A DNA stretch of 64,000 bases from positions 1,688 to 65,687 of the IMG/VR virus record IMGVR_UViG_2740892609_000001. One strand, given 5' to 3'. Positions within the stretch are counted from its first letter, which is position 1. Each line of letters begins with the position of its first letter. Positions 33,248 through 61,543 of this stretch are shown here, in pieces. Both the position numbers and the translations under genes were made by a program. Source of the DNA: a virus (Duplodnaviria; Caudoviricetes). Under the pieces are notes generated by a model. The model was given only the letters and a program-made list of their open reading frames with translations. It did not search any database and was not told where the DNA came from.

Positions 33248-33739
33248 ATGGCAGGGATGGGACCTCCTCCCAAGCCGGCCGGGCAGCGGCGGCGGAGCAA
33301 TGCCACCATCGCGATGACCCAGCTGCCGGCCGAGGGCAGGATGAAGGAAGCCCCGAGGTACCCGCTGCCGCCGGTCGTCGTAAGCGACGACGATGGCGGC
33401 TCGGAGATGGCCCGGGAGCGTGAGGCCGAGCTGTGGGAGTCCCTCTGGGAGACTCCTCAGGCGGTCATGTGGGAGCGGACGCACGCCGTGCTGACCGTGG
33501 CCCGCTTCGTCCGCTTCTCGGTGCTGGCCGAGGCTGGCAACGTCAAGGCCGCTACCGAGGCCCGGCAGTTGGAGGACCGGCTCGGGCTCAACCCGCAGGC
33601 CATGCTCCGGCTCCGCTGGGAGGTGGCGGCCGACGAGGTAGCCGATCAGCGGCAGGAGCGAACGTCCAGGGCGACCACAGTCAAGACGGCGAGGCAGCGC
33701 CTGAGGGTGGTCGACGCCGATGCCGTGGCGGGGTCCTGA
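33248..33739 (+). CDS. Terminase small subunit
   Basis: MAGMGPPPKP...RRRSN...LWETPQA...EARQLEDRLGLNP; precedes terL. Confidence 0.85.
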   Translation: MAGMGPPPKPAGQRRRSNATIAMTQLPAEGRMKEAPRYPLPPVVVSDDDGGSEMAREREAELWESLWETPQAVMWERTHAVLTVARFVRFSVLAEAGNVKAATEARQLEDRLGLNPQAMLRLRWEVAADEVADQRQERTSRATTVKTARQRLRVVDADAVAGS

Positions 33740-35291
33740 TCATCCGGGCGAGTTTCCTTCGTTGGGCTGGGCGGTCGGCGAGTGGATCGAGGCGCACTGC
33801 GTCATCCCCGACGGTGACCAGATCGGCGATCCGTACCTGCTGACCGACGAGATGTGGACCTTCCTGGCCTGGCACTACCGGCTCCGGCTGGATGCCACCG
33901 AGGAGGGCTGGCGGTCGGCCTGGTCCTATCGTCGCTCGCAGCTGGTTCGCCCGCAGAAGTGGGGCAAGGGCCCGCTGACATGTGCGATGGTCTGCGCGGA
34001 AGCGGCCGGCCCGGTGCGGTTCGCCGGCTGGGATGCCGCCGGGGAGCCGGTTGGCAGGGCCTGGGAGACGCCGTGGATCCAGATCGCGGCCACGTCCGAG
34101 GACCAGACCGACAACGTCTATCGCGCGCTCGTGCCGATGATCGACGAGGGCCCGCTCGCCAATCTCATCCCGGATACGGGCGAGACGCGGATCAACGTCC
34201 CTGGCGGCGGTCGCATTGAGCCGGTCACCAGCTCGGGGCGGGCCCGGCTTGGCCAGCGCATCACGTTCGCCGTCCAGGATGAGACGCATAGCTGGCTTGA
34301 GGCCAACGGCGGCTGGAAGCTCGCGGAGACCCAACGCCGCAACCTCTCGGGCACGGGTGGCCGCGCGGTGGAGACGACCAACGCCTGGGACCCGTCGGAG
34401 CAGTCGGTGGCCCAGCGGACCGCGGAGGCATCGGTCAAGGACGTGTACCGCGACCACCGGGTCCCGGCGCCGGCGTCGCTCGCCAATAAGCGGGAGCGGC
34501 ACAAGGCGCTGAGGGTCGCCTACGGGGACTCGTCGGTGCTTGTTGGCGGCTGGGTAGACCTGGACCGGATCGACGGCGAGCTCGTCGAGATCGCCGAGAA
34601 GGACCCGGCGCAGGCCGAACGTTTCTACCTGAACCGGATCGTGGCCGGCACCGGCGCATACCTCGATGGCGACCGCTGGGATCTGCTCCGCGAAGAGCGG
34701 GAAGTGCCCGCCGGAACCGCAGTGACGCTCGGCTTCGACGGCTCGGACATCGACGACTGGACCGGGATCCGCCTTGAGACCCTGGACGGCTACCAGTTCA
34801 CGCCGACCTACGGGCCCGACCGACTTCCCACGGTCTGGAACCCGAGGGACTGGGGCGGTCAGGTACCGCGCCTGGACGTCATGGCCGCCTTTGATGAGGT
34901 CTTCGCGACGTACAGCGTGGTGCGCGCCTACCTGGACCCGCCGTACTGGGAGTCAGAGGTCGACTCGCTCGCCGAGAAGCATGGCGAGAAGGTCGTCACC
35001 CGCTGGTACACCAACCGGATCGCGCAGATGCACGGCGCGGCCGAGCGGCTGGCCACCGATGTGTCGAAGAAGGACTCGACGCTCCGGCACGACGGCTGCC
35101 AGTGGGCTGGCCAGCACCTGCGGAACATGCGCAAGGGTGCAAGGCCGGCTGGCCGGTACGTCCTGAAGAAGGCTTCCGAGGCTCAGAAGATCGACCTTGG
35201 AATGTGTTCGATCCTCGCCCATGAAGCGGCTGGCGACGCCATCGCAGCCGGCCAGGCCAAGACGAAGAGGCGCCGCGCCCGCGGCTTCTGA
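33720..35291 (+). CDS. Terminase large subunit
   Basis: RPQKWGKGP; AATSEDQT; QDETH; LGFDGS..DD; KIDL. Confidence 0.95.
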   Translation: MPWRGPDHPGEFPSLGWAVGEWIEAHCVIPDGDQIGDPYLLTDEMWTFLAWHYRLRLDATEEGWRSAWSYRRSQLVRPQKWGKGPLTCAMVCAEAAGPVRFAGWDAAGEPVGRAWETPWIQIAATSEDQTDNVYRALVPMIDEGPLANLIPDTGETRINVPGGGRIEPVTSSGRARLGQRITFAVQDETHSWLEANGGWKLAETQRRNLSGTGGRAVETTNAWDPSEQSVAQRTAEASVKDVYRDHRVPAPASLANKRERHKALRVAYGDSSVLVGGWVDLDRIDGELVEIAEKDPAQAERFYLNRIVAGTGAYLDGDRWDLLREEREVPAGTAVTLGFDGSDIDDWTGIRLETLDGYQFTPTYGPDRLPTVWNPRDWGGQVPRLDVMAAFDEVFATYSVVRAYLDPPYWESEVDSLAEKHGEKVVTRWYTNRIAQMHGAAERLATDVSKKDSTLRHDGCQWAGQHLRNMRKGARPAGRYVLKKASEAQKIDLGMCSILAHEAAGDAIAAGQAKTKRRRARGF

Positions 35292-38337: not shown

Positions 38338-39282
38338 ATGGCCTACACCAACCTGACCTCCCGGACGGACGCCCAGGCGCTCATTCCGGAAGAGGTCTCC
38401 AACGAGATGCTCGGCAAGGCGCTGGAGCAGTCCGCCGTGCTGTCCCTGTTCCGGAGGGTTCCGGTCGGCCGGGCGCAGGTCCGCTTCCCGGTGCTCAGCG
38501 CGCTGCCGACGGCGTACTTCGTCGGTGGTGACACCGGTCTGAAGCAAACGACGGAGATCAACTGGGCGAACAAGTTCCTCAACATCGAAGAGATCGCCGT
38601 CATCATGCCGGTCCCGGACAACGTCCTGGCCGACGTGGACGCCAACATCTGGGACGAGGCGATGCCTCTGATGACGGAGGCCATGGGCCGGACCCTGGAT
38701 GCGGCGACGTTCTTCGGTACGAACGCGCCTTCGTCCTGGCCCACGAACATCGCGTCGGCGGCAACCGCCGCAGGCAACAACGTCACCGCCAACTCGGCGG
38801 CCACCGCCGGTGCCTTCTTTGGCGACATCGACAACGGCTACGGCCTCGTCGAGGCTGACGGCTACGAGGTGACCGGTTTCGTCGGCGCAACCTCGGTCAA
38901 GTCCAAGCTGCGCAAGTCCCGCGATTCGCAGGGCCGCAAGCTGGACGAGTCCCGCGTCGCCGGGAACCTCATGTCGATCGACGGTCTTCCGGTCGTCTAT
39001 CCGATGCGCGGCCTGTTCGGGACGGGCTCTGGCTCGCCGACGCTGTTCATGGGCGACTGGTCGCAGTTCGTCATCGGCGTCCGACAGGACATCACGATGA
39101 AGATCCTCGACCAGGCCGTCATCCAGGACAACACGGGCGCCATCGTCTACAACCTGGCTCAGCAGGACATGACCGCGATCCGGCTTACCTTCCGCGTGGG
39201 CTGGCAGGTCTCCAACACGATCAACAACGACCAGCCGACCGAGGCGAACCGCTACCCGGTCGCCCGCATCGACCTGCCGTAA
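38338..39282 (+). CDS. Major capsid protein (HK97 fold)
   Basis: ALIPEEVS...EEIAVIMPVP...GDWSQ...NLAQQDMTAIR. Confidence 0.93.
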   Translation: MAYTNLTSRTDAQALIPEEVSNEMLGKALEQSAVLSLFRRVPVGRAQVRFPVLSALPTAYFVGGDTGLKQTTEINWANKFLNIEEIAVIMPVPDNVLADVDANIWDEAMPLMTEAMGRTLDAATFFGTNAPSSWPTNIASAATAAGNNVTANSAATAGAFFGDIDNGYGLVEADGYEVTGFVGATSVKSKLRKSRDSQGRKLDESRVAGNLMSIDGLPVVYPMRGLFGTGSGSPTLFMGDWSQFVIGVRQDITMKILDQAVIQDNTGAIVYNLAQQDMTAIRLTFRVGWQVSNTINNDQPTEANRYPVARIDLP

Positions 39283-43459: not shown

Positions 43460-46400
43460 GTGGCCACTCGTACCGTGAACGTCGTCCTGACCGGCACGGC
43501 AACGCCGTTCATTAGCGCCACCCAGCAGGCGGCGCGGGCTTCTCAGGCGGCGTCTCGGCAGATCGAGACGTCGATGCGGGCGGCGACGAACTCCTCGTCG
43601 GCCGCCCTGCAGAACATGGCGCGAGCAGCCGAGACGCAGGGCGCGCGTGCTGCTGCGAGCATGAACCGCACAGCGTCGGTGACTGAGTCGCAGATGCGGC
43701 GAGCCGGAGTGAGCGGCCGGGAGTCCCTGAATCAGGTGGGCGCGGGCGCCGCTCAGGCGGCGTCCAGTATGGGCGCGGTGAACCGGGCCGCGGCGACCAC
43801 CGGCGCCCAGCTGACTCAGCTGGGGGGCCGCGGCGCTGCGGGTGTGAACCAGGCCTCTGCTTCGCTGGGACAGCTGTCCTCGCGCCTGGGGGCAGTTAAC
43901 ACGGCCGCCGCGACGACGGGGGCACAGCTCACGGGGCTCGGCACTCGTGGTGCCGCGGCGGTCAACCTTGTTGCCGCCTCTTCGGCGCAGGCCGCTACTG
44001 GCATGGCGACGGTTGCGTCCGCGGCTACTGCGGCGGCAGCTACGACGGCCCGCCAGTTCACAGGCGCTGGCGGGGCGGTGACGCGGGTCTCTGCGGCAGC
44101 GCGCGCGGCGGCTGCAGCTGATGCCGGTCGCATCGCTTCGGCGTGGTCGTCTGCTGCGGCTGCCATCGGCGGCGGCATGCGTTTCGCGGCGTCGACCGTC
44201 GGTACGAGCATGGTCGAGGTTGCCAACACGTCCGAGAAGTCACTCAAGGCTGCCCGTGCGGCCTCGCTCGGGCTGGTAGCCGTGTTCGCGCTGGCCGCAG
44301 CGGCGGCAGCCCGCTTCGAGAAGGCGATGTCGGAGGTTCGGGCAGTTACAGGCGGCAACGCCGACGAGATGAAGGCCCTGTCGGCGGCCGCCTTGGAGGC
44401 TGGTCAGGCGACGGTCTATTCGGCGACTCAGGCGGCGAACGCCGAGGCGGAGCTGGCGCGAGCCGGCATCTCGACCGCGGACATCATCGGCGGTGCACTG
44501 CGCGGCTCGCTCGACCTGGCTGCATCCGGGCAACTCGCCCTCGGCGAGTCGGCGATCATCGCCGCTCAGGCTATGAACGCCTTCAAGTTGAAGGGTGGCG
44601 ACGTCGGGCACATCGCTGACGTCATCTCTGCGGGCGCCGGCAAGTCGGCTACCAACGTTCACGCGATGGGCCTGGCCTTCCGACAGGCAGCACTCCTGTC
44701 GTCGCAGACGGGGCTGTCGCTGGAGGAGACCGTCGGCACGCTGTCGCTCTTCGCCCAGAACGCCCTCGTTGGCTCGGACGCCGGTACCTCGCTCAAGGTC
44801 ATGCTTCAGAGGCTGGTCCCGCAGTCCAAAGAGGCCGCGACCATGATGGACCAGATTGGCTTCAGCGCCTACGACGCGTCCGGCCAGTTCATCGGCCTGT
44901 CGGCTCTCGCCGACGTCATGAAGTCATCCTTCTCAAAGCTGACGCCGGAGGCGCGCAACGCCGCAATGGCGACCATCTTCGGGGCAGACGCTGTACGGTC
45001 AGCGACCGTCCTGTATGAGGCGGGCTCTGCGGGAATCGATCAGTGGGTCAGTGCCGTCAACGATCAGGGGTACGCCACCCGCGTCGCTGCCACCATGACT
45101 GACAACCTCTCCGGTGACCTGGAGCGACTCAAGGGCGCCCTGGAGACTGCCCTGATCAGTTCGGGATCATCCGGCAACAAGATCCTTCGTGAGATGGCGC
45201 AGACCCTCGCTGGGGTCGTGAACTGGTACAACCAGCTGTCGCCGTCCGTGCAGTCCAACGTCACGATACTGGCCGGCCTCGTCGGCATCCTGGGCCTCGT
45301 CGGCTCCAGTCTGCTGCTGATGCTGCCTCGCATCATGGCCGTCCGGACCGAACTGGTCGCGCTAGGAGTCACGGCCGCCAGGGTTCGCGGAGCGATGCTG
45401 GGCCTGGGCGGGCTTGCGGTCATCCTGACTACTCTCGGCGCGGTCGCGACGGGCATCGGAAAGCTCACGGAGCGGTTCCGGGACGCCCCGCCCGAGATCA
45501 ACAAGATGGCCGAGAGCCTCGTCGACTTCGCCCAGAAGGGCAAAGTCTCCGGCGAGATGGCCCGAATCTTCGGCGCCAACTTGGACAAGGCCGGCGACGC
45601 AATCGAGCGCATTGCCCACCCGGGCGCCCTCGATCGCGTCGAGGACTTCTTCAGCACGTTCGACCCGAACGCCGATGCGGGACCGAGCCTGGAAGCAGCC
45701 CGCGAGAAGATCCGCGGGCTGGACGAAGCGCTGGCCGGGCTCGTCTCCGGCGGCGCAACCAAGGAGGCCGCGGAGAATTTCAAGCGGCTATCCGAGGAAG
45801 CCAACAAGCACGGAACCAGCACCGAAAAGCTCATGACGCTGCTGCCTCAGTATGAGGGCGCCCTGGCCGCGACCTCGACGTCGGCCAAGCTCGCCGCGGG
45901 CTCGCAGAAGGAGCTCGGTGACGCCACGCAGCTGACTGCGGGTGATCTGCAGGACACCCGCACCGAGGCTGACAAGTTGAAGGATTCGCTGGACCTGCTG
46001 AACGGGGCGGCGATCTCTTCAGCCGAGAAGGAGATCTCTTTCCGGGCGAGCCTGAAGGATCTCACCGACACGGTGAAGGAATCCGGCCACAGCCTGGACG
46101 TCACATCGGAAGCCGGCCGGAAGGTGAAGGGGAGCTTCCTCGATGCTGCGCAGGCGGCGATGGCGCACGCGAAGGCCGTCACCGAGCAGCAGAACAGTGT
46201 GGAGGCGGGCAACGCGGTCCTAGAGCAGGACATCGCTGTTCTGAAGCGGCAGATGGAGGCAGCCGGATTCTCGACCGAGGCGATCAACGGGCTGATCGGC
46301 GCTTACGCCCAGGTGCCCACCCAGGTCGTCACGGATATCAAGGCTGAGACCGATGCCGCTGTCGCTGACCTGCAGAACGTGCAGGCGGAACTCGGCAAGA

Positions 46401-47044: not shown

Positions 47045-47914
47045 GTGCCGTACATCCCCGGCACCAGCCTCGGCGGCCGCCGGGTCGACCTCGGCAGCGT
47101 CTCCCTGGGAATGGTTGACGCTGCCGGAGTCGCCTGGCATCTGATCGCAATGGACGGCTGGGACAGCCCCGAGCTGCGTGCCGAGTACTCGCCGCGCGAG
47201 GCTGACCATGGCGCGTGGGCTGCCCCCGTCTACCTCGGGCAGAGACCGATCACCCTCGCTGGGAAGATCGAGACGTCGAGCCTGGCGGCCCTAGACAGCG
47301 CCATGGAGCGGCTGATTGCGGCCTGCGCCCTGACGGACACCACGCTCACGGTGTACGAGACGACGCCCAAACAGGCGACCGTCAGACGCTCCGGCCAGCT
47401 TCTTCTGCGCCCGATCACGGACCGCATCGCCGAGTATTCGATCCTCGTCACAGCCGCTGACCCGCGCCGCTATTCGACGGTGCAGCAGTCGCGATCGACG
47501 GGCCTGCCGTCCGTGACTGGCGGCCTGACAATCCCCGTCACCGTCCCGTTCACCATCAGCACGACCGTGACGGGCGGCGCCTTCACTCTGGTCAACGACG
47601 GCAGCATCGGCACACGCCCGACCTTCACGATCACCGGCCCTGCCGCAATGCCAGTCATCGTGTGCGAGCGGCAGGACGGGACGATCGTCCAACTCGCCTA
47701 CACGCAGACTCTCGGCGCCGGCGACACCCTCGTCATCGACACCGACGCGCACACGGTCACCCTCAACGGGACCGCGTCCCGACGCCGGTACCTGTCGGCG
47801 CAGCCGGCCTGGCCTGAGATCCCGCCCGGCGACTCCCTGTCGGTCCAATGGACCGCCTCAGCCTATGACGCCGCCGCCCTGCTCACCGGCACCTGCCGGT
47901 CCGCCTGGATGTAA
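47045..47914 (+). CDS. Distal tail protein
   Basis: GVAW...GW...HGAW...AADPRRY...RSAWM; follows the tape measure. Confidence 0.8.
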   Translation: MPYIPGTSLGGRRVDLGSVSLGMVDAAGVAWHLIAMDGWDSPELRAEYSPREADHGAWAAPVYLGQRPITLAGKIETSSLAALDSAMERLIAACALTDTTLTVYETTPKQATVRRSGQLLLRPITDRIAEYSILVTAADPRRYSTVQQSRSTGLPSVTGGLTIPVTVPFTISTTVTGGAFTLVNDGSIGTRPTFTITGPAAMPVIVCERQDGTIVQLAYTQTLGAGDTLVIDTDAHTVTLNGTASRRRYLSAQPAWPEIPPGDSLSVQWTASAYDAAALLTGTCRSAWM

Positions 47915-50931: not shown

Positions 50932-51792
50932 ATGGCCTGGTACCCCGGAGCTACCAAGATGGAGCTCCAACCCGAGTCGGACAGCCAGCCGGCCATCGTC
51001 CCTACCCAGCTCATCTTCCACTCGGTCGCCGCACCGTGGACGAAGGAGCGGATCTTCGAATTTTGGCGCGACAGCACCAACCTCGACTCCCACTTCGGCC
51101 AGTCCTACGACGGCAGCATCGCCCAGTACATCGGCACCGAGACCCGCGCCGACGCCAACTACCTGGCAAACCGGCGGCCCGACGGGACTGGCGCGGTGTC
51201 CATCGAGACGGCATCGAACGACAACCACACGGACCCCTGGACAGACGCCCAGGTCGAAGGGCTGATCCGGCTCGGCGTGTGGATGCACGAGAGGCACGGC
51301 CTCCCGCTGCGAATCTGCCGCAGCGCTTCCGATCCCGGCTACGGATACCACCGCCTGTATGGCGACTGGGCCGTCAGCGGGACCGCCTGCCCGGGTGACG
51401 CGCGTGTCGCGCAGTTCAAGAACGTGATCTTCCCGGCCATCGTCGCCCGCGCGACAGGCCAGGCCCCCAACCCGTCCGAGGAGGACGACATGCCCACAGC
51501 CGACGAGATCGCCACCGCCGTCTGGCGCCACACGGAGACCAACGCCGCCACCGGCAAGCCGGTCGACATGGGCGCCGTCATGGCCTGGATGGACAAGGTC
51601 CACAACACCCAGGTCGACACGATCGCCAGGCAGCTCGCCGCAACCCAGGCCGCCGTCACCGCGCTCGCCACGCTGCTCGGCCAGCACGACGACGCCGACA
51701 CCGCCACCATCGTGGCCGCGGTCAAGAAGGCCATCGCCGACGCCGTCGTCAAGGTCGACGTCACTGTCAGCGGCACCCCGACGGAGGGCTGA
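50932..51792 (+). CDS. Endolysin, N-acetylmuramoyl-L-alanine amidase (Amidase_2)
   Basis: LIFHS...SHF...ADAN...SIET...WTDAQ...GYHR...TACPG. Confidence 0.9.
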   Translation: MAWYPGATKMELQPESDSQPAIVPTQLIFHSVAAPWTKERIFEFWRDSTNLDSHFGQSYDGSIAQYIGTETRADANYLANRRPDGTGAVSIETASNDNHTDPWTDAQVEGLIRLGVWMHERHGLPLRICRSASDPGYGYHRLYGDWAVSGTACPGDARVAQFKNVIFPAIVARATGQAPNPSEEDDMPTADEIATAVWRHTETNAATGKPVDMGAVMAWMDKVHNTQVDTIARQLAATQAAVTALATLLGQHDDADTATIVAAVKKAIADAVVKVDVTVSGTPTEG

Positions 51793-53424: not shown

Positions 53425-53539
53425 GGCGCCCCGCGGGGACGGTCCTGGGGTTACACGACCGCCACCGCGTCCATAAAGGGTGTCCAAAAATTCGAAGCGT
53501 TCATTAACCATCAACCACCCCTTTCTGTACGGTTCTTGC

Positions 53540-54217
53540 ATGACCACAGCCGCCCAGTGGGCAGCCGACGGCGAAGACACCCTCGCCGCGTTCCCCGCCA
53601 ACGTGACTGGCGTCCTCATCGGATACGCCCGCGTCTCCACCAAGGGTCAGAACCTCGACCGCCAGATCGCCGCGCTCACCACGTGCGGCTGCGCCAAGGT
53701 CTTCGCGGACAAGAAGTCCGGCAAGACCGTCGAGCGCGAAGAGCTCTGGAAGGCGCTGGAGTACGCCCGCCCCGGCGACACCCTCGTCGTACCGTCCCTC
53801 GACCGTCTCGGCCGCTCCATCCAGGACCTCATCGCCATCGTCGCCGGCCTCCGCAAACGCGGCATCGGCTTCCGCTCACTGCATGAAGCCCTCGACACGA
53901 CCACCCCCGGCGGTCGGCTCGTCTTCCACGTCTTCGCCGCGCTCGCCGAGTTCATCCGCGAACTCATCGTCCAGGGCACCCATGAAGGACTCGCCGCCGC
54001 CCGAGCCCGCGGCGAGCGCATCGGCCGCCCGCCGGCCATGACCGAGGAGCAGATCCTGCACGCCCGGTCCATGCTCGCCAACCCCGAAGCCTCCATCGCC
54101 TCCATCGCCCGGCTGCTCGGGATCAGCCGGACCACGCTGTACAAGTACGTCCCAGAACTCCGAGCTGGCCACCGACCGGAGCTGACAGCCCGCGCCGCAA
54201 ACGGAGAGCTGTCATGA
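53540..54217 (+). CDS. Small serine recombinase (resolvase/invertase)
   Basis: IGYARVST..Q..DRQ...GDTLVVPSLDRLGRS...GRPP; C-terminal HTH. Confidence 0.95.
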   Translation: MTTAAQWAADGEDTLAAFPANVTGVLIGYARVSTKGQNLDRQIAALTTCGCAKVFADKKSGKTVEREELWKALEYARPGDTLVVPSLDRLGRSIQDLIAIVAGLRKRGIGFRSLHEALDTTTPGGRLVFHVFAALAEFIRELIVQGTHEGLAAARARGERIGRPPAMTEEQILHARSMLANPEASIASIARLLGISRTTLYKYVPELRAGHRPELTARAANGELS

Positions 54218-54789
54218 AGACATGCGGTCGCCTGACCAAGCGCAACGGCATCTGCCGTTCACCGGTGCTTGCCTACTGGGGCATGCCGCACACCGTGCCC
54301 AAGGCCGCCTCGTGCCGCGCCCACCTCACTCCGGAGGAGTCCGAGGTCTACGACAAGGCGGTCCAGGAGCGTGAGGCGAGCGTCGAAGCCTCCTGGAAAT
54401 GGTTCTTCGAGCAGGAACCAGCCTGCTGGCGTTGGCCCGCGGTCGGTGTGATTGCCGCCAGCGAGGCGGAGCAGTTCCAGGTCCTGTACGAGTGGCACGC
54501 CGACCGCTGTGCGATCTGCGGCCGTCGCGCCCACCTTGTCGAGGATCACGACCACGCCACCGGCTTGACCCGCGGCTACCTGTGCACCAGCTGCAACACG
54601 CGGGAAGGCATCTACGCAAGGGAGCCGGAGGGACCGTTCGCAAAGTACCGCGAACGCCACCCGACAACGATCCTCGGCCTGAGGCTCCGCTACTGGGACC
54701 CCTTTGCCAAGGCCTACGCCAAGCCACGCCCACCGCTGTCGGAGGCTGACGCCTGGACCGACGCCGCGTCCGACGACATCGGCCTGTAG
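54214..54789 (+). CDS. Endonuclease VII-domain protein
   Basis: CAICG...DHDHATGLTRGYLCTSCNTREG. Confidence 0.85.
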   Translation: MKTCGRLTKRNGICRSPVLAYWGMPHTVPKAASCRAHLTPEESEVYDKAVQEREASVEASWKWFFEQEPACWRWPAVGVIAASEAEQFQVLYEWHADRCAICGRRAHLVEDHDHATGLTRGYLCTSCNTREGIYAREPEGPFAKYRERHPTTILGLRLRYWDPFAKAYAKPRPPLSEADAWTDAASDDIGL

Positions 54790-54802
54790 AGAGGAACTCA
54801 AC

Positions 54803-54994
54803 ATGAACAGCAACACCCACCCGCTGCGTTACCGCCTCCGCGGGGGTCGCAACGTACACGCGGTCAAGTTCATCGCGCGCAACACCTCGGCCATCACCGC
54901 CTGCGGCGAGATGGTCCTGGACAAGGACGAGAGGCAGTACGAAGGGAAGCCCGTGACGTGCAGTGCCTGCGCCCGACGACTCCAACGCGCTTAA
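54803..54994 (+). CDS. Small Zn-binding protein
   Basis: VH...TACG...VTCSAC. Confidence 0.55.
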   Translation: MNSNTHPLRYRLRGGRNVHAVKFIARNTSAITACGEMVLDKDERQYEGKPVTCSACARRLQRA

Positions 54995-55033
54995 GGGAAC
55001 GTTATGCGCTAGCCCAACCCGAAGGAGGCCACG

Positions 55034-55288
55034 TTGAAGACCCCGATCGACATGCCCAGCTCATGGCTCGGCGAGCTGGAGCAGGCCGCCCAGGAGCGCG
55101 AGGATGAGATCGTGCGCTTCGTTCTCCAGCAGCCCGACTACCCGCCGCTACCCGCCTGCCCCGAGTGCGGCGCCGAACCCACGGAGATCAAGCAGCGGAT
55201 GGGGGACCCCGACTTCGACATCGACCACAACTTCGCATGGGTGGCCTTCGAGCCCTGCGGGCACGTCTTTCGAGCCCGCGCCGTCTGA
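55034..55288 (+). CDS. Small zinc-ribbon protein
   Basis: CPEC...PCGH; AGGAGG RBS. Confidence 0.55.
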   Translation: MKTPIDMPSSWLGELEQAAQEREDEIVRFVLQQPDYPPLPACPECGAEPTEIKQRMGDPDFDIDHNFAWVAFEPCGHVFRARAV

Positions 55289-55443
55289 CCGTCCTGCCAC
55301 ACTGGAGCCACCCGAAGGAGGGACGCCATGCGCGTGATCCGCTGGACCCAACGGAACTTCGAGCCAGCCGCCTACACGTTCGCCGCCACGTGCGCGATCG
55401 CCCTGGCGGCCATCGCGCCGATCGCCTGGAAGTAGGGGACGCC

Positions 55444-55656
55444 ATGCCGTACCGCCCGTACCCGAACGCGGACCGCGCCCTTCGGCAGCTCGCACGCCAG
55501 CAGGCCGAGACCGCGTTTCACCCGCACGTCATCTTCGATCCGAGTACCGGGGTCTTCGCCGAGTGGAATCGGATGCTAACCATCGCGGCGCGGCAGGCGC
55601 CGGAGGCGTTCATGAAGGAAGTCGCTAAGGCCTTCCGCGGCGCCCAGCGGGCCTGA
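55444..55656 (+). CDS. Hypothetical protein
   Basis: MPYRPYPNADRALRQ. Confidence 0.5.
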   Translation: MPYRPYPNADRALRQLARQQAETAFHPHVIFDPSTGVFAEWNRMLTIAARQAPEAFMKEVAKAFRGAQRA

Positions 55657-55660
55657 CGCC

Positions 55661-55682
55661 TGTCGGTGCCGCGCGCCACACT
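55661..55682 (+). promoter_or_regulatory. RecA-NDp/PafBC-like promoter motif
   Basis: TGTCGG-N10-CACACT versus consensus TGTCGG-N10-TA-N3-T. Confidence 0.5.
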
Positions 55683-55690
55683 GGGGGCAG

Positions 55691-55784
55691 TCCCTCGTGG
55701 CTTAGCGGCTAGAGCGCTCGGTGCACCGCCCTCCGGGGTAACTGAAAGACGAGATCGCGGGTTCGAGTCCCGCCGAGGGATCCA
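55691..55784 (+). tRNA. Atypical tRNA/tRNA-like RNA with expanded anticodon arm
   Basis: Acceptor TCCCTCG/CGAGGGA plus T-CCA; D stem GCTT/GAGC; T arm GCGGG-TTCGAGT-CCCGC; 29 nt enclosed by CTCG/CGAG. Confidence 0.75.
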
Positions 55785-55811
55785 GCCCCCACCTTCGGGT
55801 GGGGGCTTTCT
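55784..55811 (+). terminator. Intrinsic terminator
   Basis: AGCCCCCACC-ttcg-GGTGGGGGCT-TTCT. Confidence 0.85.
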
Positions 55812-55937
55812 CGTGTCCGGAATCTTGCTCTGTCATATGCCTACCGATGCCCCGGCCTGCGGGTTTACGGTGTCCGCACCCGATCCCCCCGGGGGCCGGT
55901 ATCCCTCCCGACCTCCCTGCGGGAGGGCTGCCGCGCG

Positions 55938-56174
55938 TCACGGCCCGTCGGGCTCCTCGTACACGTGCGGCTGTCCGCCCTGCCAGGCGATGACCTCCGA
56001 GTCGCCGAGGACCAGGTCGTCCGGGTCGGGTACTTCGATCCGCCGCAGGAACTCGATCAGGTCCGCATCGGAGTAGGCGACGCCGAGGACGGTGTCGACG
56101 CCGGCGATCCGGATCACGCCCCGCCGGCCACCCGACGGGGAGATCCGGTGCACGAGGATCGGCGCACGCTCCAT
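55938..56174 (-). CDS. Small hypothetical protein
   Basis: PILVHRISPSGGRR...LGVAYSDADLIEFLRR; GGAGG RBS. Confidence 0.7.
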   Translation of the reverse strand: MERAPILVHRISPSGGRRGVIRIAGVDTVLGVAYSDADLIEFLRRIEVPDPDDLVLGDSEVIAWQGGQPHVYEEPDGP

Positions 56175-56197
56175 CCCTCCAGCCTGCGTCGGGCCGG

Positions 56198-56533
56198 TCA
56201 GTCCAGCACGCCGAGCTCGACGTCCGGCCGGCAGTACGGGCAGGCCTCCAGCTGCTCGGCCAGCGCACGCAGCGCGGCATCACGGGTGAGTGCGTGCCGC
56301 CGGAAGCCCTTGCCGCCCATCGCGCAGCCACCGACGTGCACCGTGGTCGGCCGTCGGCTCAGATCGAGCTCCAGCTCCCACTCGGCGGGCGGGGCGGGCG
56401 GCAGACGCGCGGCCAGCTCGGCGAGCCGCTGCTCCTCAGCGGCGATCCAGCCGCGGGTCCGCTCCAGGTCCTGCAGCTGCACCCGCTCCAGGAAGCGGAG
56501 GAGGTCAAGACGGGACGGCTGCGGATCGGACAC
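56198..56533 (-). CDS. DUF6233-like protein
   Basis: VHVGGCAM...ACPYCRPDVELG. Confidence 0.75.
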   Translation of the reverse strand: MSDPQPSRLDLLRFLERVQLQDLERTRGWIAAEEQRLAELAARLPPAPPAEWELELDLSRRPTTVHVGGCAMGGKGFRRHALTRDAALRALAEQLEACPYCRPDVELGVLD

Positions 56534-56546
56534 AAGTTCGATTCTA
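56526..56546 (-). promoter_or_regulatory. LexA (SOS) box with adjacent -10 element
   Basis: Minus strand TAGAAT overlapping TCGAAC-TTGT-GTCCGA; 1 mismatch to TCGAAC-N4-GTTCGA. Confidence 0.65.
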
Positions 56547-56739
56547 CGCTGATCGGCGCATGCCCTTTGTCAGTGCCACCTGCGAACATGTCCACATCAG
56601 GCACTCACTCCTAGCTAGCGGGGATGCTGCTGGGCGAGTGCAGCACCGCCCCGCCGGGCCTGTCTGGGCTTGTGAGACCGGCGGGGCGGAGCGCTGTCAG
56701 GCCTCGGTCGGCTCCGGGTGCCGGACCGCCTTCTTCAGC

Positions 56740-56922
56740 CTAGGCGGCGGGTACGACAGTGGCCCGCAGCCATGCGGCGAGCAGACGCTGGTACTCCTCC
56801 GACCCGGCCCCACCGGAGGCGACGAGCGCGCGGATCCGCTCGTTCAACTCGGCAGCCTCAGGGGTCGGGATCATGCCGAACAGGATAGCGAGCAGCACCC
56901 ACAGTTGGCCCCGGCCGCCCAT
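56740..56922 (-). CDS. Small hypothetical protein
   Basis: AAELNERIRALV...EYQRLLAAW; start uncertain. Confidence 0.45.
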   Translation of the reverse strand: MGGRGQLWVLLAILFGMIPTPEAAELNERIRALVASGGAGSEEYQRLLAAWLRATVVPAA

Positions 56923-56933
56923 AGGATCGGCCC

Positions 56934-57596
56934 ATGATTCGAGCTGTCGTTTTCGATGTTGGCGAGTGCCTAGTAGACGAGACCCGCGAGTACGGCACCT
57001 GGGCCGACTGGCTCGGCGTCCCCCGCCACACCTTCGCCGCCATGTTCGGCGCGGTCATCGCCCAGGGCCGCGACTACCGCGAGGTCTTCCAGCCCTTCAA
57101 GCCTGGCTTCGACCTGACCGCCGAGCGGGAAGCGCGCGCCTCCGCCGGCCAGCCGGAGCACTTCGACGAGTCCGACCTGTACCCGGACGTGCGGCCCGCG
57201 CTGGCCAAGCTTCGAGCGGACGGCCTGTGGCTCGGCATCGCCGGCAACCAGACGGTCCGCGCGGGCGGCATCCTCCGAGGCCTCTTCGCCGACGACGTCG
57301 ACCTGATCGGCACCTCCGACGACTGGGGCGCCAGCAAGCCCGACCTCGCGTTCTTCGAGCGCGTGGCCGAGGTCGTCCCCTACATCGCCGGCGAGATTCT
57401 CTACGTCGGCGACCGCGTCGACAACGACCTCCGCCCCGGCGCCACCGCAGGCATGCACACCGCGCTCATCCGCCGCGGCCCCTGGGCCACCATCCAGTGG
57501 GACACCGAGGAAGCGAAGAAGCTGCCGACCTTCCGGGTCGACAGCCTCCTCGAGCTCCCCGCGCTGATCGGCGAGTTCAATTCGCGAGAGCGCTGA
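56934..57596 (+). CDS. HAD-superfamily hydrolase
   Basis: VVFDVGECLVD; LYPDV; GIAGNQ; SKPD; YVGDRVDND. Confidence 0.9.
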   Translation: MIRAVVFDVGECLVDETREYGTWADWLGVPRHTFAAMFGAVIAQGRDYREVFQPFKPGFDLTAEREARASAGQPEHFDESDLYPDVRPALAKLRADGLWLGIAGNQTVRAGGILRGLFADDVDLIGTSDDWGASKPDLAFFERVAEVVPYIAGEILYVGDRVDNDLRPGATAGMHTALIRRGPWATIQWDTEEAKKLPTFRVDSLLELPALIGEFNSRER

Positions 57597-58794
57597 GCAT
57601 CGCACCCCAGCTGAACAGCCGGTCATCGAGAGCACGGACGCACGGCTCGCTCTGCCACGGAGCGAGCCCTCGCCGAACCTCCCGCACCCGCTCCATGCCG
57701 GTCGCGTACCAGTGCGTCTCCAGCAGATCCAGGGCACGGACCGCGTAGTCGCAAGCCTCTTCCGGCTGGCCGGCCGCCACCTCGACGGCAGCGAGGTCAC
57801 CGAGGACGACCGTTCGCTGCTTGTCCGCGTCGGCCGGCAGATCGGCCAGGACGCCCAGCAGCGTCTCCCGGGCCTGCGGCAGATGCCCGGCACGCAGCTG
57901 GACGTTCCCCTTGAACGCCAACAGACGGACGGGGCTGAACCAGTCCATCCACTCCGGGGACGGCTCCTCGCGGCCGGCCGCCAGGACGTCCTCGCCGTGC
58001 GCGATCAGGTTCAGTGCGGTCCGCGTGTTGCCGCAGCGGGTCTCACACTCGGCCTCGACCGCGTCCAGCCACGCCAGCAGCTCCGCGGATGCCGGACCGC
58101 GGCGGGCTGATGTCCGGGCCATGGCCATCCGCTCCGCCGCGCCCGCCCGGTCACCCGCCCAGCCAGGGACGAACGCCGTGTGGGCGAGGATCGCCGCGCC
58201 GAGCAGCGCATCGTCCGCGTCGCCGGCAGCCTGCAGCGCGCGCAGCCACGTCTCCCGCGCCCGGCCCGGCTCGGACAGGTCGAAGAACTCGATGCGGCCG
58301 GCCAGGAGCCAGGACTCGGCGAGCGCCGACGCCACAGACTTGCGGATGACACCGGCCGTCGCGGGCAGCAGGGCGGCACCGAGCGTGGCGTGCGCCGCCA
58401 CCGCCGGATGCAGCGTGGCCGGCGCCACCGTCCAATACAGGCGCCGGTGGGCGCGGGTCACCGTGGCATAGGCGGAGGCCGCCGAAGCCGGTTGCGCGGC
58501 GTTCGGCACAGCCATCGGCGCCACCGGAGGCGTCCGAAGCACACGGCCCGCGTCGGTGCCCGAGGGAGCAGGGAAACCAAGATCTTCGATTGCGGTAACG
58601 TCGAGCAGGTCCATCAGCGCAAGCCGAAGATCAGGGGTCGGCAGCTGAGGGCTACTGGACTCCCAGCGGCGTACCTGGCGCTCACTGACGGCCAGCCCGC
58701 GGGCGGTCAGGGCGTCGGCGAGCTGCTGCTGCGAGCGGTATCCCGCTGCCTGACGCGCCGCCCTGAGGCGCGCATTGCCTAGCGGTCGGGACAT
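57577..58794 (-). CDS. XRE-HTH regulator with TPR-like helical C-terminus
   Basis: LRAARQAAGYRSQQQLADAL...VSERQVRRWES; helical repeats. Confidence 0.85.
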   Translation of the reverse strand: MSRPLGNARLRAARQAAGYRSQQQLADALTARGLAVSERQVRRWESSSPQLPTPDLRLALMDLLDVTAIEDLGFPAPSGTDAGRVLRTPPVAPMAVPNAAQPASAASAYATVTRAHRRLYWTVAPATLHPAVAAHATLGAALLPATAGVIRKSVASALAESWLLAGRIEFFDLSEPGRARETWLRALQAAGDADDALLGAAILAHTAFVPGWAGDRAGAAERMAMARTSARRGPASAELLAWLDAVEAECETRCGNTRTALNLIAHGEDVLAAGREEPSPEWMDWFSPVRLLAFKGNVQLRAGHLPQARETLLGVLADLPADADKQRTVVLGDLAAVEVAAGQPEEACDYAVRALDLLETHWYATGMERVREVRRGLAPWQSEPCVRALDDRLFSWGAMLSALAN

Positions 58795-58880
58795 CCCAAC
58801 CTCCATACGTCGTAGGGGCGGTGGCAAGTCTGGCAGCCGGGCCGCAACCAGGCCACGAATCACCCACACGAGACCTCAGA

Positions 58881-60855: not shown

Positions 60856-61086
60856 CTATGGCATGAGGTCTCTCGCCGGGAGGCGCAGGACGCGGGCGAG
60901 GCGGAGAAGCAGACTGAACTTCGGATCCGTCTTGCCGGCCTCAGTCTTTTGCAGGGTTGTCCGGTCGATCCCGGCCATCTCGGCCAACTTCTCCTGCGTG
61001 AGGTCCGCTTCCAGGCGGGCGTCGCGGATCCGATTGCCCAGGTCAATGCGGGCTTGAAGGATCCACGGAGGTGTAGCGGGCTGCAC
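60856..61086 (-). CDS. XRE-family HTH protein
   Basis: LGNRIRDARLEADLTQEKLAEMAGIDRTTLQKTEAG. Confidence 0.85.
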   Translation of the reverse strand: MQPATPPWILQARIDLGNRIRDARLEADLTQEKLAEMAGIDRTTLQKTEAGKTDPKFSLLLRLARVLRLPARDLMP

Positions 61087-61241
61087 CTACTAGACACTCA
61101 GACTTGAAGATCGTTTTGTCTGCGGGATATATCCCGCAATTTGTGATCAACGCCGCCACAGTCGGCGACCAGACGGCCGCGGGTGCAGCGGCGAGGGCCC
61201 CACTATCAGCGTGGTAGGGCGCGACAGGCATCCAGCGGCAA

Positions 61242-61283: not shown

Positions 61284-61471
61284 GGCCCCTGACCTGCAAC
61301 AACACCAAGATCCCTTGGGGGGATTTTAGGGGGCGGGACGCCGTAGCGACACTGCATGAGAGCGTAGCGAGGCTGCACTGACGCGTAGTCAAACTGCATA
61401 CAGATGCACGAAAGCCCAGGTGCAGATGGTTCTGACCTGGGCTTTCCCGACCTCCTTCGAGGTCAACGCGG

Positions 61472-61543
61472 TGGGCGTGGACGGTTTCGAACCGCCGACA
61501 TCTGCTTTGTAAGAGCAGCGCTCTACCCCTGAGCTACACACCC
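61472..61543 (-). tRNA. tRNA-Val(TAC), probable integration target
   Basis: GGGTGTG...CTGCT-CTTACAA-AGCAG...GGCGG-TTCGAAA-CCGTC-CACGCCC-A; CCA not encoded. Confidence 0.95.

Follow-up and report, generated by a model that had tools for sequence, protein, structure and literature searches.

The usual explanations for transfer RNA (tRNA) genes in phages are codon supply and the replacement of tRNAs that defence nucleases have cut. Acceptor and T-arm modules are also found joined to parts that are not tRNA, as in the tRNA-like domain of transfer-messenger RNA (tmRNA), a molecule of several hundred nucleotides with a G3·U70 pair, a tag reading frame and pseudoknots, and in the bacterial Y-RNA-like YrlA, where both ends of the RNA are in the stem opposite the acceptor mimic. 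In the engineered tRNA scaffold, as the consulted part of its description reports, the acceptor stem and the T and D arms are kept and the anticodon stem-loop is swapped for a foreign hairpin; such RNAs are stable and processed in vivo in E. coli, and the body serves both stability and recognition by cellular tRNA factors (PMC3753655). Phage counter-defence tRNAs, in the sections of the reports cited here, are encoded in accessory regions and decode, with normal 7-nt loops that carry point changes (PMC10264068, PMC11464382, PMC11555353). In tRNA-His and in the viral tRNA-like structures that accept histidine, base −1 pairs with base 73 to give an 8-bp acceptor helix; the excerpts consulted state that G−1:C73 alone suffices for histidyl-tRNA synthetase (HisRS), which charges mini- and microhelices bearing this pair (PMC9976931). 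Here we analysed a window of 64,000 nucleotides, bases 1688–65687 of the 65,687-nt IMG/VR provirus record IMGVR_UViG_2740892609_000001 (G+C content 68.9%). At positions 55691–55784 of its plus strand lies a gene for a tRNA-shaped RNA of 94 nt in which a 37-nt arm replaces the 17-nt anticodon stem-loop. With evenly balanced confidence, we read it as a selected, non-decoding, tRNA-scaffolded small RNA that has its own promoter and terminator and occupies an accessory slot of a temperate Streptomyces phage.

The comparison with the described systems is instructive on both sides. Like the engineered scaffold, the prophage RNA keeps the acceptor stem and the T and D arms around an exchanged anticodon arm; it differs in being natural, in having its own promoter and terminator and in carrying a conserved insert. 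It shares with the counter-defence tRNAs a tRNA-type gene in a phage accessory region, but it lacks an anticodon loop. As in tmRNA and YrlA, an acceptor/T-arm module is joined to a part foreign to tRNA. The topology is, however, the reverse of that of YrlA, and neither the tmRNA nor the YrlA families of Rfam gave a match at the locus. With regard to tmRNA, ARAGORN reported none, the acceptor stem has C3–G70, and 37 nt is too short for a tag frame. In the literature searched, supplementary files aside, a tRNA-bodied non-decoding phage RNA was undescribed.

The RNA was called by ARAGORN and, in a permissive scan, aligned by the Rfam tRNA family (RF00005); a covariance model of our own, R1, was applied to a homologue described below. 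The acceptor stem UCCCUCG/CGAGGGA has seven perfect pairs (55691–55697 with 55774–55780, plus strand), and it is followed by the discriminator U55781 and an encoded CCA (55782–55784). The D arm GCUU-AGCGGCUA-GAGC (55700–55715, plus strand) has a 4-bp stem and an 8-nt loop with G18 and G19. The T arm is GCGGG-UUCGAGU-CCCGC (55757–55773, plus strand). These elements, together with the terminator described below, had been named in an earlier sequence-only reading of the locus, and all of them are present. Across the five known members of the family the T stem is invariant and the T loop has the consensus UUCGANU; the bases that make the tertiary contacts (U8, A14, G15:C48, G18G19 and the T loop) are present and are invariant or covarying in all five. 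The three arms and the tertiary bases agree with those of a canonical tRNA (Rfam RF00005). In a permissive scan of short stretches, RF00005 aligned positions 1–71 with 42.7 bits (gathering score 29), and its local alignment skipped 33 nt where the model expects 15. The default scan of the whole window at the gathering threshold did not report the 94-nt RNA, nor was the copy in L033 reported.

Four homologues were found by pattern scans and a search with a neighbouring protein. Two are on IMG/VR phage contigs (L018:4877–4970 and L033:2461–2553), one is on the minus strand of a soil-type metagenome contig and is 1 nt different from the window (L032:701–794), and one lies on the minus strand of a prophage in a contig of Streptomyces sp. 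cmx-4-9 (L037:3661–3753); by the last assignment the host genus is Streptomyces. Thus five members from four kinds of source have one architecture of 92–94 nt. The sequence-only reading had set a condition for its own failure, namely that the homologues would be ordinary tRNAs and the insert unique to this locus. The opposite was found, as all four homologues keep the oversized arm with its extra 20 nt or so. The carriers themselves have diverged: L018 aligns to the window in patches with 65–82% identity, and L033 can barely be aligned outside the RNA. The L037 copy scored 101.6 bits with R1, against at most 58.1 bits for the host tRNAs.

The covariation set comprised the five sequences folded as a cloverleaf plus the arm, with 120 pair cells in all. 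Standard pairs fill 94.2% of these cells, compared to 36–58% when the partners are slid by one to three columns. The covariation score was 0.158 (0.112 ± 0.022 for shuffled alignments), a value reached by 8 of 500 shuffles. All seven acceptor pairs are formed in all five sequences, and pair 4–69 (4–87 in the alignment numbering) occurs as CG (two), UG (two) and UA (one). In the D stem, pair 10–25 is GC in three and AU in two, and pair 13–22 is CG in three and UG in two. Every change in the acceptor and D stems preserves pairing. RNAalifold recovers the acceptor stem, the T arm and the distal hairpin of the arm. The proposal that the locus encodes a selected, stand-alone, non-decoding tRNA mimic gains support from the retention of the arm in all four homologues, with changes that preserve pairing.

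In the 37-nt arm (55717–55753, plus strand), a 4-bp basal stem leads through a large internal loop to a distal hairpin. The basal stem, CUCG (55717–55720) with CGAG (55750–55753), encloses 29 nt (55721–55749), which is the number that the sequence-only reading had counted. Its register is shifted by one base in L018, L033 and L037 (ACUC/GAGU, GCUC/GAGU). A self-match identified a perfect 10-nt palindrome, CGGUGCACCG, with the core GGUGCACC, at 55719–55728 of the plus strand. The same palindrome is present in the window, L032 and L037; it reads CGGCGCGCCG in L018 and CGGUGCACCA in L033. It is perfect in four of the five members and holds at 9 of 10 positions in L033. In L018 the symmetry is preserved through two mirrored substitutions, for which the chance with two random changes in ten bases is about 0.04 by a rough hand estimate. 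The core consensus is GGYGCRCC, preceded by CUCGG. The distal hairpin GCCC-UCCG-GGGU (55728–55739, plus strand) has the family consensus RCCC-loop-GGGY with loops of UNCG type (UCCG, UUCG, CUCG). Its closing pair (38–49) is GU in three, AU in one and GC in one, and the sole break is a C·A mismatch in L037. Single-sequence folds recover this hairpin in three of four isolated arms. The same proportion folds as basal stem, large internal loop and distal hairpin, with the L037 arm folding otherwise. The 3′ strand of the internal loop is purine-rich (55740–55749, plus strand), with an invariant GAA at 55744–55746 (G54, A55 and A56 of the alignment), and its only fixed bases are UA...GAA. The 5′ half of the arm (CUCGG-YGCRCC-RCCC) is conserved as strongly as the body.

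Within the locus, conservation is highest in the promoter and the terminator. An upstream element of the “−26” type, TGTCGG (55661–55666), is followed after 10 nt by the −10 hexamer CACACT (55677–55682), which is part of a conserved GCCACACTGG block; both are on the plus strand. TGTCGG is present in four of five members (TGCCGG in L032), and CACACT is invariant. Just upstream of the hexamer, the four homologues have TGC, as in an extended −10 (TGn), and the window has CGC. A simple scan found no sigma-70 pair of −35 and −10 boxes here. The window contains two matches without mismatch to the stricter motif, this arrangement and a second at 46049 (minus strand) that falls within a coding sequence. 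The PafBC-dependent (RecA-NDp) promoters have the consensus tGTCgg(N10)tA(N3)T and no −35 element, according to the parts of the two reports consulted (PMC8635444, PMC6789036). The spacing and all fixed letters agree in the window except for the first base of the −10 hexamer, which is C and not T. Another difference from the PafBC promoters is seen in the sister cassettes, where TGTCGG is replaced by CGCCTG or CGTCTG. The GCCACACTGG block recurs at 55296–55305, ahead of small open reading frames (ORFs) and with CGTCTG upstream, and in relatives it occurs with CGCCTG. Induction of the RNA gene by DNA damage through PafBC is plausible from the motif. No PafBC-type promoter on a phage small-RNA gene turned up in the literature searched. 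In the region 55296–55436 the CGTCTG-N10-CACACT copy is followed by a ribosome-binding site and an ORF of 35 codons, read by eye, whose product would have a hydrophobic tail; after it comes a 70-codon ORF (55444–55656).

The −10 hexamer ends 7 nt ahead of A−2 and G−1 in all five members. These two bases (55689–55690, plus strand; A39 and G40, both invariant, in alignment A4) are the putative start site, and the spacing indicates that transcription probably starts at the mature 5′ end, 7–8 nt after the −10 hexamer. At the other end, an intrinsic terminator (55784–55815, plus strand) is formed by a GC-rich hairpin of 10 bp (55784–55807) followed by UUUCUCGU. The hairpin has a folding energy of −22.7 kcal/mol (z = −2.9; 2 of 200 shuffles were as stable) and UUUCUCG comes next. 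It is conserved in L018 and L032, and different hairpins occupy its place in L033 and L037.

The neighbouring 78-aa protein was used to find further relatives. In four of them (L003, L004, L006 and L008), the match to the window breaks off at the promoter and is taken up again exactly at 55784–55787, in the terminator, and different inserts lie in between (L003:3190–3420, L004:3350–3560, L006:1490–1660 and L008:2560–2910, all on the minus strand). L008 carries two cassettes in tandem. Soil contigs from four runs span both flanks (the promoter side and 55806–56000) and not 55687–55788. Phages are known to carry accessory cassettes of the “moron” type, and the locus shows what defines such a cassette, its own promoter and terminator and exchange among close relatives. 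No gene is specific to the carriers of the RNA; the flanking genes are common to relatives with other cassettes, and L033 is without the right-hand genes. A scan with the promoter returned 21 matches, about seven of them in coding DNA that is not actinophage-like. The cassettes behind the promoter are of several types: hairpins of about 45 nt with a CCCCCGUC loop and two larger RNAs, one of about 125 nt and one of about 190 nt. Hairpins of about 45 nt with a CCCCCGUC-type loop and a U-rich tail were seen just downstream of GCCNCGTGCCACACTGG in seven IMG/VR actinophage contigs (L064, L067, L068, L071, L072, L074 and L077). The 190-nt cassette (L003:3276–3356, minus strand; also in L075 and L076) gave a sub-threshold match to the Rfam family DUF3800-IV (29.2 bits, gathering score 60.7, E = 0.0043). 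Its first hairpin in L003, GCUGAMCCGG...CCGGUGUAGG, also follows the tRNA-like RNA in L037, ahead of a terminator.

Two further RNAs with a tRNA body were found in this setting. The first (L008:2621–2730, minus strand) has a 56-nt arm and an imperfect acceptor stem and scored 22.4 bits with R1 (E = 0.0017). With its D arm GCUCAGCGGCCAGAGC and T arm GCCGGUUCGACUCCGGU, it is distant from the family and was unreported by the Rfam tRNA model. The second (L074:2952–3031, minus strand) is about 80 nt long, has G−1 and C73, a 6-bp anticodon stem and a 6-nt loop, and scored 32.3 bits. ARAGORN called it “tRNA-???” with a 4-nt anticodon, ccac, and it stands directly after a hairpin cassette, in a slot of this kind. 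Three versions of the arm were seen: 37 nt in the window, 56 nt in L008, and in L074 the 6-bp stem that carries a 6-nt loop. On a lower-GC phage contig (L059:3627–3725, plus strand) we also noted an odd tRNA of 99 nt whose acceptor stem, UCCCUCG/CGAGGGA, is identical to that of the window RNA. Its anticodon arm has a stem of 6 bp and the 5-nt loop CACUA (alternatively, a 7-nt loop that lacks U33); the variable arm is long, CCA is encoded, and ARAGORN called the RNA “Asp gtc”.

The origin of the body was traced with R1. In the L037 genome, the next-best matches after the family member are all host tRNA-Arg genes (UCU 58.1, CCU 57.0, ACG 52.0 and CCG 51.7 bits). Outside the arm, host tRNA-Arg(CCU) shares 47 of 55 positions with L018 and 41 of 55 with the window; for host tRNA-His the count is 32–34 of 55. 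The body would thus descend from a tRNA-Arg(CCU)-like gene whose Arg identity has been lost. Of the bacterial tRNA-Arg identity set, which the consulted section gives as A20, C35 and A or G at 73 (PMC9976931), little is left: position 20 is C, U, A or C, so that A20, the main determinant, is kept by L033 alone; U or C stands at 73, and position 35 is absent. The acceptor end is of another type. G−1 is invariant in all five members and able to pair with base 73, its presence in the transcript being deduced from the promoter spacing. Base 73 is C in L018, L033 and L037, and U, giving a G·U pair, in the window and L032. The pairing of G−1 with base 73 gives an 8-bp acceptor helix typical of tRNA-His, and host tRNA-His has an encoded G−1 and C73. 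Since HisRS depends mainly on the pair at this end, for which the window has U73, histidylation independent of the anticodon is possible. The RNA differs from tRNA-His in its lack of the GUG anticodon, a minor determinant, in the G−1·U73 pair of the window and in its Arg-like body. In the host tRNA genes examined CCA is not encoded, and CCA addition by the host is therefore presumably available.

Decoding finds no support at this locus. The RNA does not combine a 5-bp anticodon stem with a loop of 7 nt, U33, a purine at position 37 and a conserved anticodon, and the five-member alignment has no conserved 7-nt loop with U33. There being no conserved anticodon loop, decoding is unsupported with or without removal of an insert; an RNA that lacks an anticodon loop could serve neither codon supply nor tRNA replacement. 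ARAGORN calls the RNA “tRNA-Arg(ccg)”, and its calls shift among homologues (Arg ccg, “???”, Trp cca). We rejected the anticodon CCG with a long variable arm, which needs a U·U or C·U mismatch in the stem, lacks U33 and shifts with single substitutions. The sequence-only reading had also noted a Phe-like loop: deletion of 55722–55741 does leave CUGAAAG in the window, but the corresponding loops are AGGAAAA in L018 and CGGAAGA in L033. Its alternative fold, UCGGU paired with ACUGA, breaks in L018 and L033. Its suggestion of a decoy for anticodon nucleases is weakened since there is no anticodon loop to be recognised.

The gene lies in the right-hand part of the prophage. Upstream, on the plus strand, are the genes for the large terminase (33720–35291), the major head protein (38338–39282), a tail protein (47045–47914) and an endolysin (50932–51792), followed by a small serine recombinase (53480–54217) and an endonuclease VII-like gene (54214–54789), the last two 1–2 kb upstream of the RNA gene. 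The upstream region of L018 also has a resolvase-type gene. Small ORFs close this run of plus-strand phage genes at 55656. To the right are phrog_17005 (55938–56174), a DUF6233 gene (56198–56533) and a helix-turn-helix (HTH) regulator (57577–58869) on the minus strand; amid these minus-strand genes stands a HAD-type hydrolase gene on the plus strand (56934–57596). Pfam matched 5 of the 10 right-side ORFs tested (DUF6233, HAD hydrolase, a weak HTH_31, weak coiled-coil families and DUF4383), and none of the 10 matched an integrase or recombinase family. The seven ORFs tested at the left end of the record, likewise searched for an integrase, had no Pfam match of any kind at E ≤ 0.01. ARAGORN places a tRNA-Val at 61470–61543 on the minus strand. 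Between 58.9 and 61.4 kb few ORFs have a coding-like G+C content at third codon positions.

The right end of the prophage appears to lie at about 61.15–61.5 kb, adjoining tRNA-Val. The stretch 60856–61150 of the window is 68–82% conserved in L018, L033 and L037. L033 runs from the RNA gene to a match of 60873–61069 and then to matches of 1216–1372 and 2352–2412, and L018 has a host-type aminopeptidase gene whose start lies about 300 nt past the stretch that matches 60856–61150; from this junction and this gene position, the end is placed beyond 61,150. This placement puts the RNA gene within the prophage, about 5.5 kb from its right end and away from the attachment site, and the prophage setting assumed by the sequence-only reading was right. 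An attachment-site remnant or hybrid was considered and rejected, as the window holds no second copy of the tRNA-like 3′ half and the prophage end is about 5.5 kb away.

We propose the following sequence of events for a non-decoding scaffold RNA. Host RNA polymerase would start at A−2 or G−1 from the −26/−10 promoter, possibly aided by PafBC after DNA damage. The terminator hairpin would then be trimmed, and the CCA end exposed or added by the host enzymes that act on tRNA 3′ ends. The L-shaped body would give stability and access to tRNA-binding proteins, and the substituted arm, with its exposed GGYGCRCC palindrome, UNCG-capped hairpin and GAA purine strand, would present the effector surface for a protein or an RNA. 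The RNA may act through the arm, by binding protein or RNA or by dimerisation at the palindrome, or through the acceptor end, as a decoy or a HisRS ligand.

Several observations weigh against a selected scaffold RNA. The RNA is known here from sequence alone. The covariation is thin because there are only five sequences from four distinct lineages, with L032 differing from the window by 1 nt; two pairs have a change on both sides, a number reached by 213 of 500 shuffles. RNAalifold missed the D stem and the basal stem and proposed other pairing for the D-arm region. The folding energy of the whole RNA is unexceptional (z = +0.42) and its minimum-energy fold is not the cloverleaf; those of the arms are ordinary (z = −0.31 to +0.98). 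The basal stem slips between lineages and is only 70% paired in one fixed register, and the 3′ strand of the arm shows little conservation. Only three of five members encode CCA (L033 has CCG and L037 has CUG), and U73 of the window is a weaker His determinant. The family is also rare: R1 found it in 1 of 151 and BLAST in 1 of 401 sampled Streptomyces genomes, the same, already known genome in both cases. The isolated-phage collection had no match to the locus or to 54200–57000 of the window, and two pattern scans, one of viral contigs and one of genome contigs, gave zero family matches. In other scans most or some matches arose by chance (two of three in metagenomes, in apparent coding DNA; 15 of 16 in genomes; one of three in a further scan), and 16 of 18 matches to the promoter pattern were unrelated to the family. 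In cofolding, the dimerisation energy difference ranged from −7.7 to −16.7 kcal/mol in the family; ordinary host tRNAs gave the overlapping range of −8.9 to −12.7 kcal/mol, and cofolding therefore does not discriminate. A search of G001 for mimicry of host RNA by the arm, with a degenerate pattern and three mismatches allowed, showed no enrichment: the pattern had 527 forward and 562 reverse matches, and its reversed control had 723 and 759. Antisense matches within the window were 10–11 nt long and at chance level. The cofold, host-mimicry and antisense scans thus point to no partner or target of the RNA.

Four other explanations have to be weighed with these points. The acceptor end and body could act as a decoy for a host defence toxin or enzyme that recognises the tRNA elbow, acceptor stem or CCA end, with the arm merely keeping the RNA off the ribosome; this would shift the decoy idea of the sequence-only reading away from the anticodon. 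We think this somewhat unlikely, even if conservation is strongest in the body and 3′ end, exchange of promoter–RNA–terminator cassettes among close relatives resembles an accessory or counter-defence slot, and phage tRNAs that neutralise tRNA-cleaving defences have been published (PMC10264068, PMC11464382, PMC11555353, PMC13056530). A pure end decoy has no need of an arm whose 5′ half matches the body in conservation; in the consulted sections of those reports the molecules are decoding tRNAs with altered loops and not loop-less mimics; and no tRNA-targeting defence gene was identified in the hosts here, where none was searched for. A second alternative, unlikely in our view, is that a phage tRNA-Arg gene took up an insertion in its anticodon arm and survives as a relic, decaying or neutral, only because its carriers are recent relatives. 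The small and rare family, the clearly tRNA-Arg-like body, the ordinary folding energy, the drift of the 3′ strand and the slipping basal stem would all suit a relic. The carriers, however, are diverged elsewhere (65–82% in the alignable flanking genes of L018, most of L033 unalignable), and the acceptor and D-stem changes all keep pairing, with the distal hairpin broken once (C·A in L037). Moreover, the promoter, start-site spacing, G−1 and terminator are conserved, and the palindrome has been preserved through a double change.

The palindrome could instead matter at the level of DNA, as a 10-bp site CGGTGCACCG, with or without the adjacent inverted repeat, for a dimeric binding or recombination protein in an old tRNA gene. 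Its perfection in four of five members, the mirrored changes in L018, the serine recombinase and endonuclease VII-like genes 1–2 kb upstream and the resolvase-type gene of L018 speak for such a site. We nevertheless regard it as very unlikely: it leaves the pairing-preserving changes, the invariant tertiary bases and the conserved promoter and terminator unexplained, relatives with the same recombinase region carry other cassettes, and the gene is away from the prophage end. The idea of a decoding tRNA that loses a mini-intron of about 20 nt, raised in the sequence-only reading, is barely credible. The introns known from bacterial tRNAs belong to group I and measure about 200 nt or more, and bacteria are not known to possess a bulge-helix-bulge splicing enzyme. 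The Phe(GAA)-like version draws on the CUGAAAG loop left by the deletion and on the invariant GAA. The Cys(GCA)-like version, through a GUGCACC loop, draws on U73 and the UGCA motif of the window, U73 and GCA being Cys determinants according to the consulted section of one source (PMC9976931). Across the homologues, however, position 33 is U, G, G and U and the residual loop is not conserved; the Cys-like GUGCACC reads GCGCGCC in L018, where GCA becomes GCG, base 73 is C in three of five, and no Rfam intron family matched at the locus.

A bolder reading, which we hold to be doubtful, is that the slot belongs to a hypervariable array of structured small RNAs in temperate Streptomyces phages, under a shared promoter of DNA-damage type (yGyCkG-N10-CACACTGG), of which the tRNA scaffold, with its His-type G−1:N73 end and interchangeable arms, is one module. 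The RNA would be induced, perhaps histidylated, and dimerised through its palindrome, and it would disable a dimeric host protein that binds tRNA, either a defence toxin or a synthetase. If true, this would constitute a new class of RNA-based factor for host takeover or counter-defence.

If the RNA is a selected, non-decoding scaffold, phages would also use the tRNA fold as a carrier or a decoy. It would provide a natural test case for anticodon-independent recognition by a synthetase through G−1:C73, and a ready-made scaffold for RNA expression in actinobacteria. The slot, with other structured RNAs under the same promoter, would point to a largely unexplored set of Streptomyces phage small RNAs, possibly wired to PafBC.

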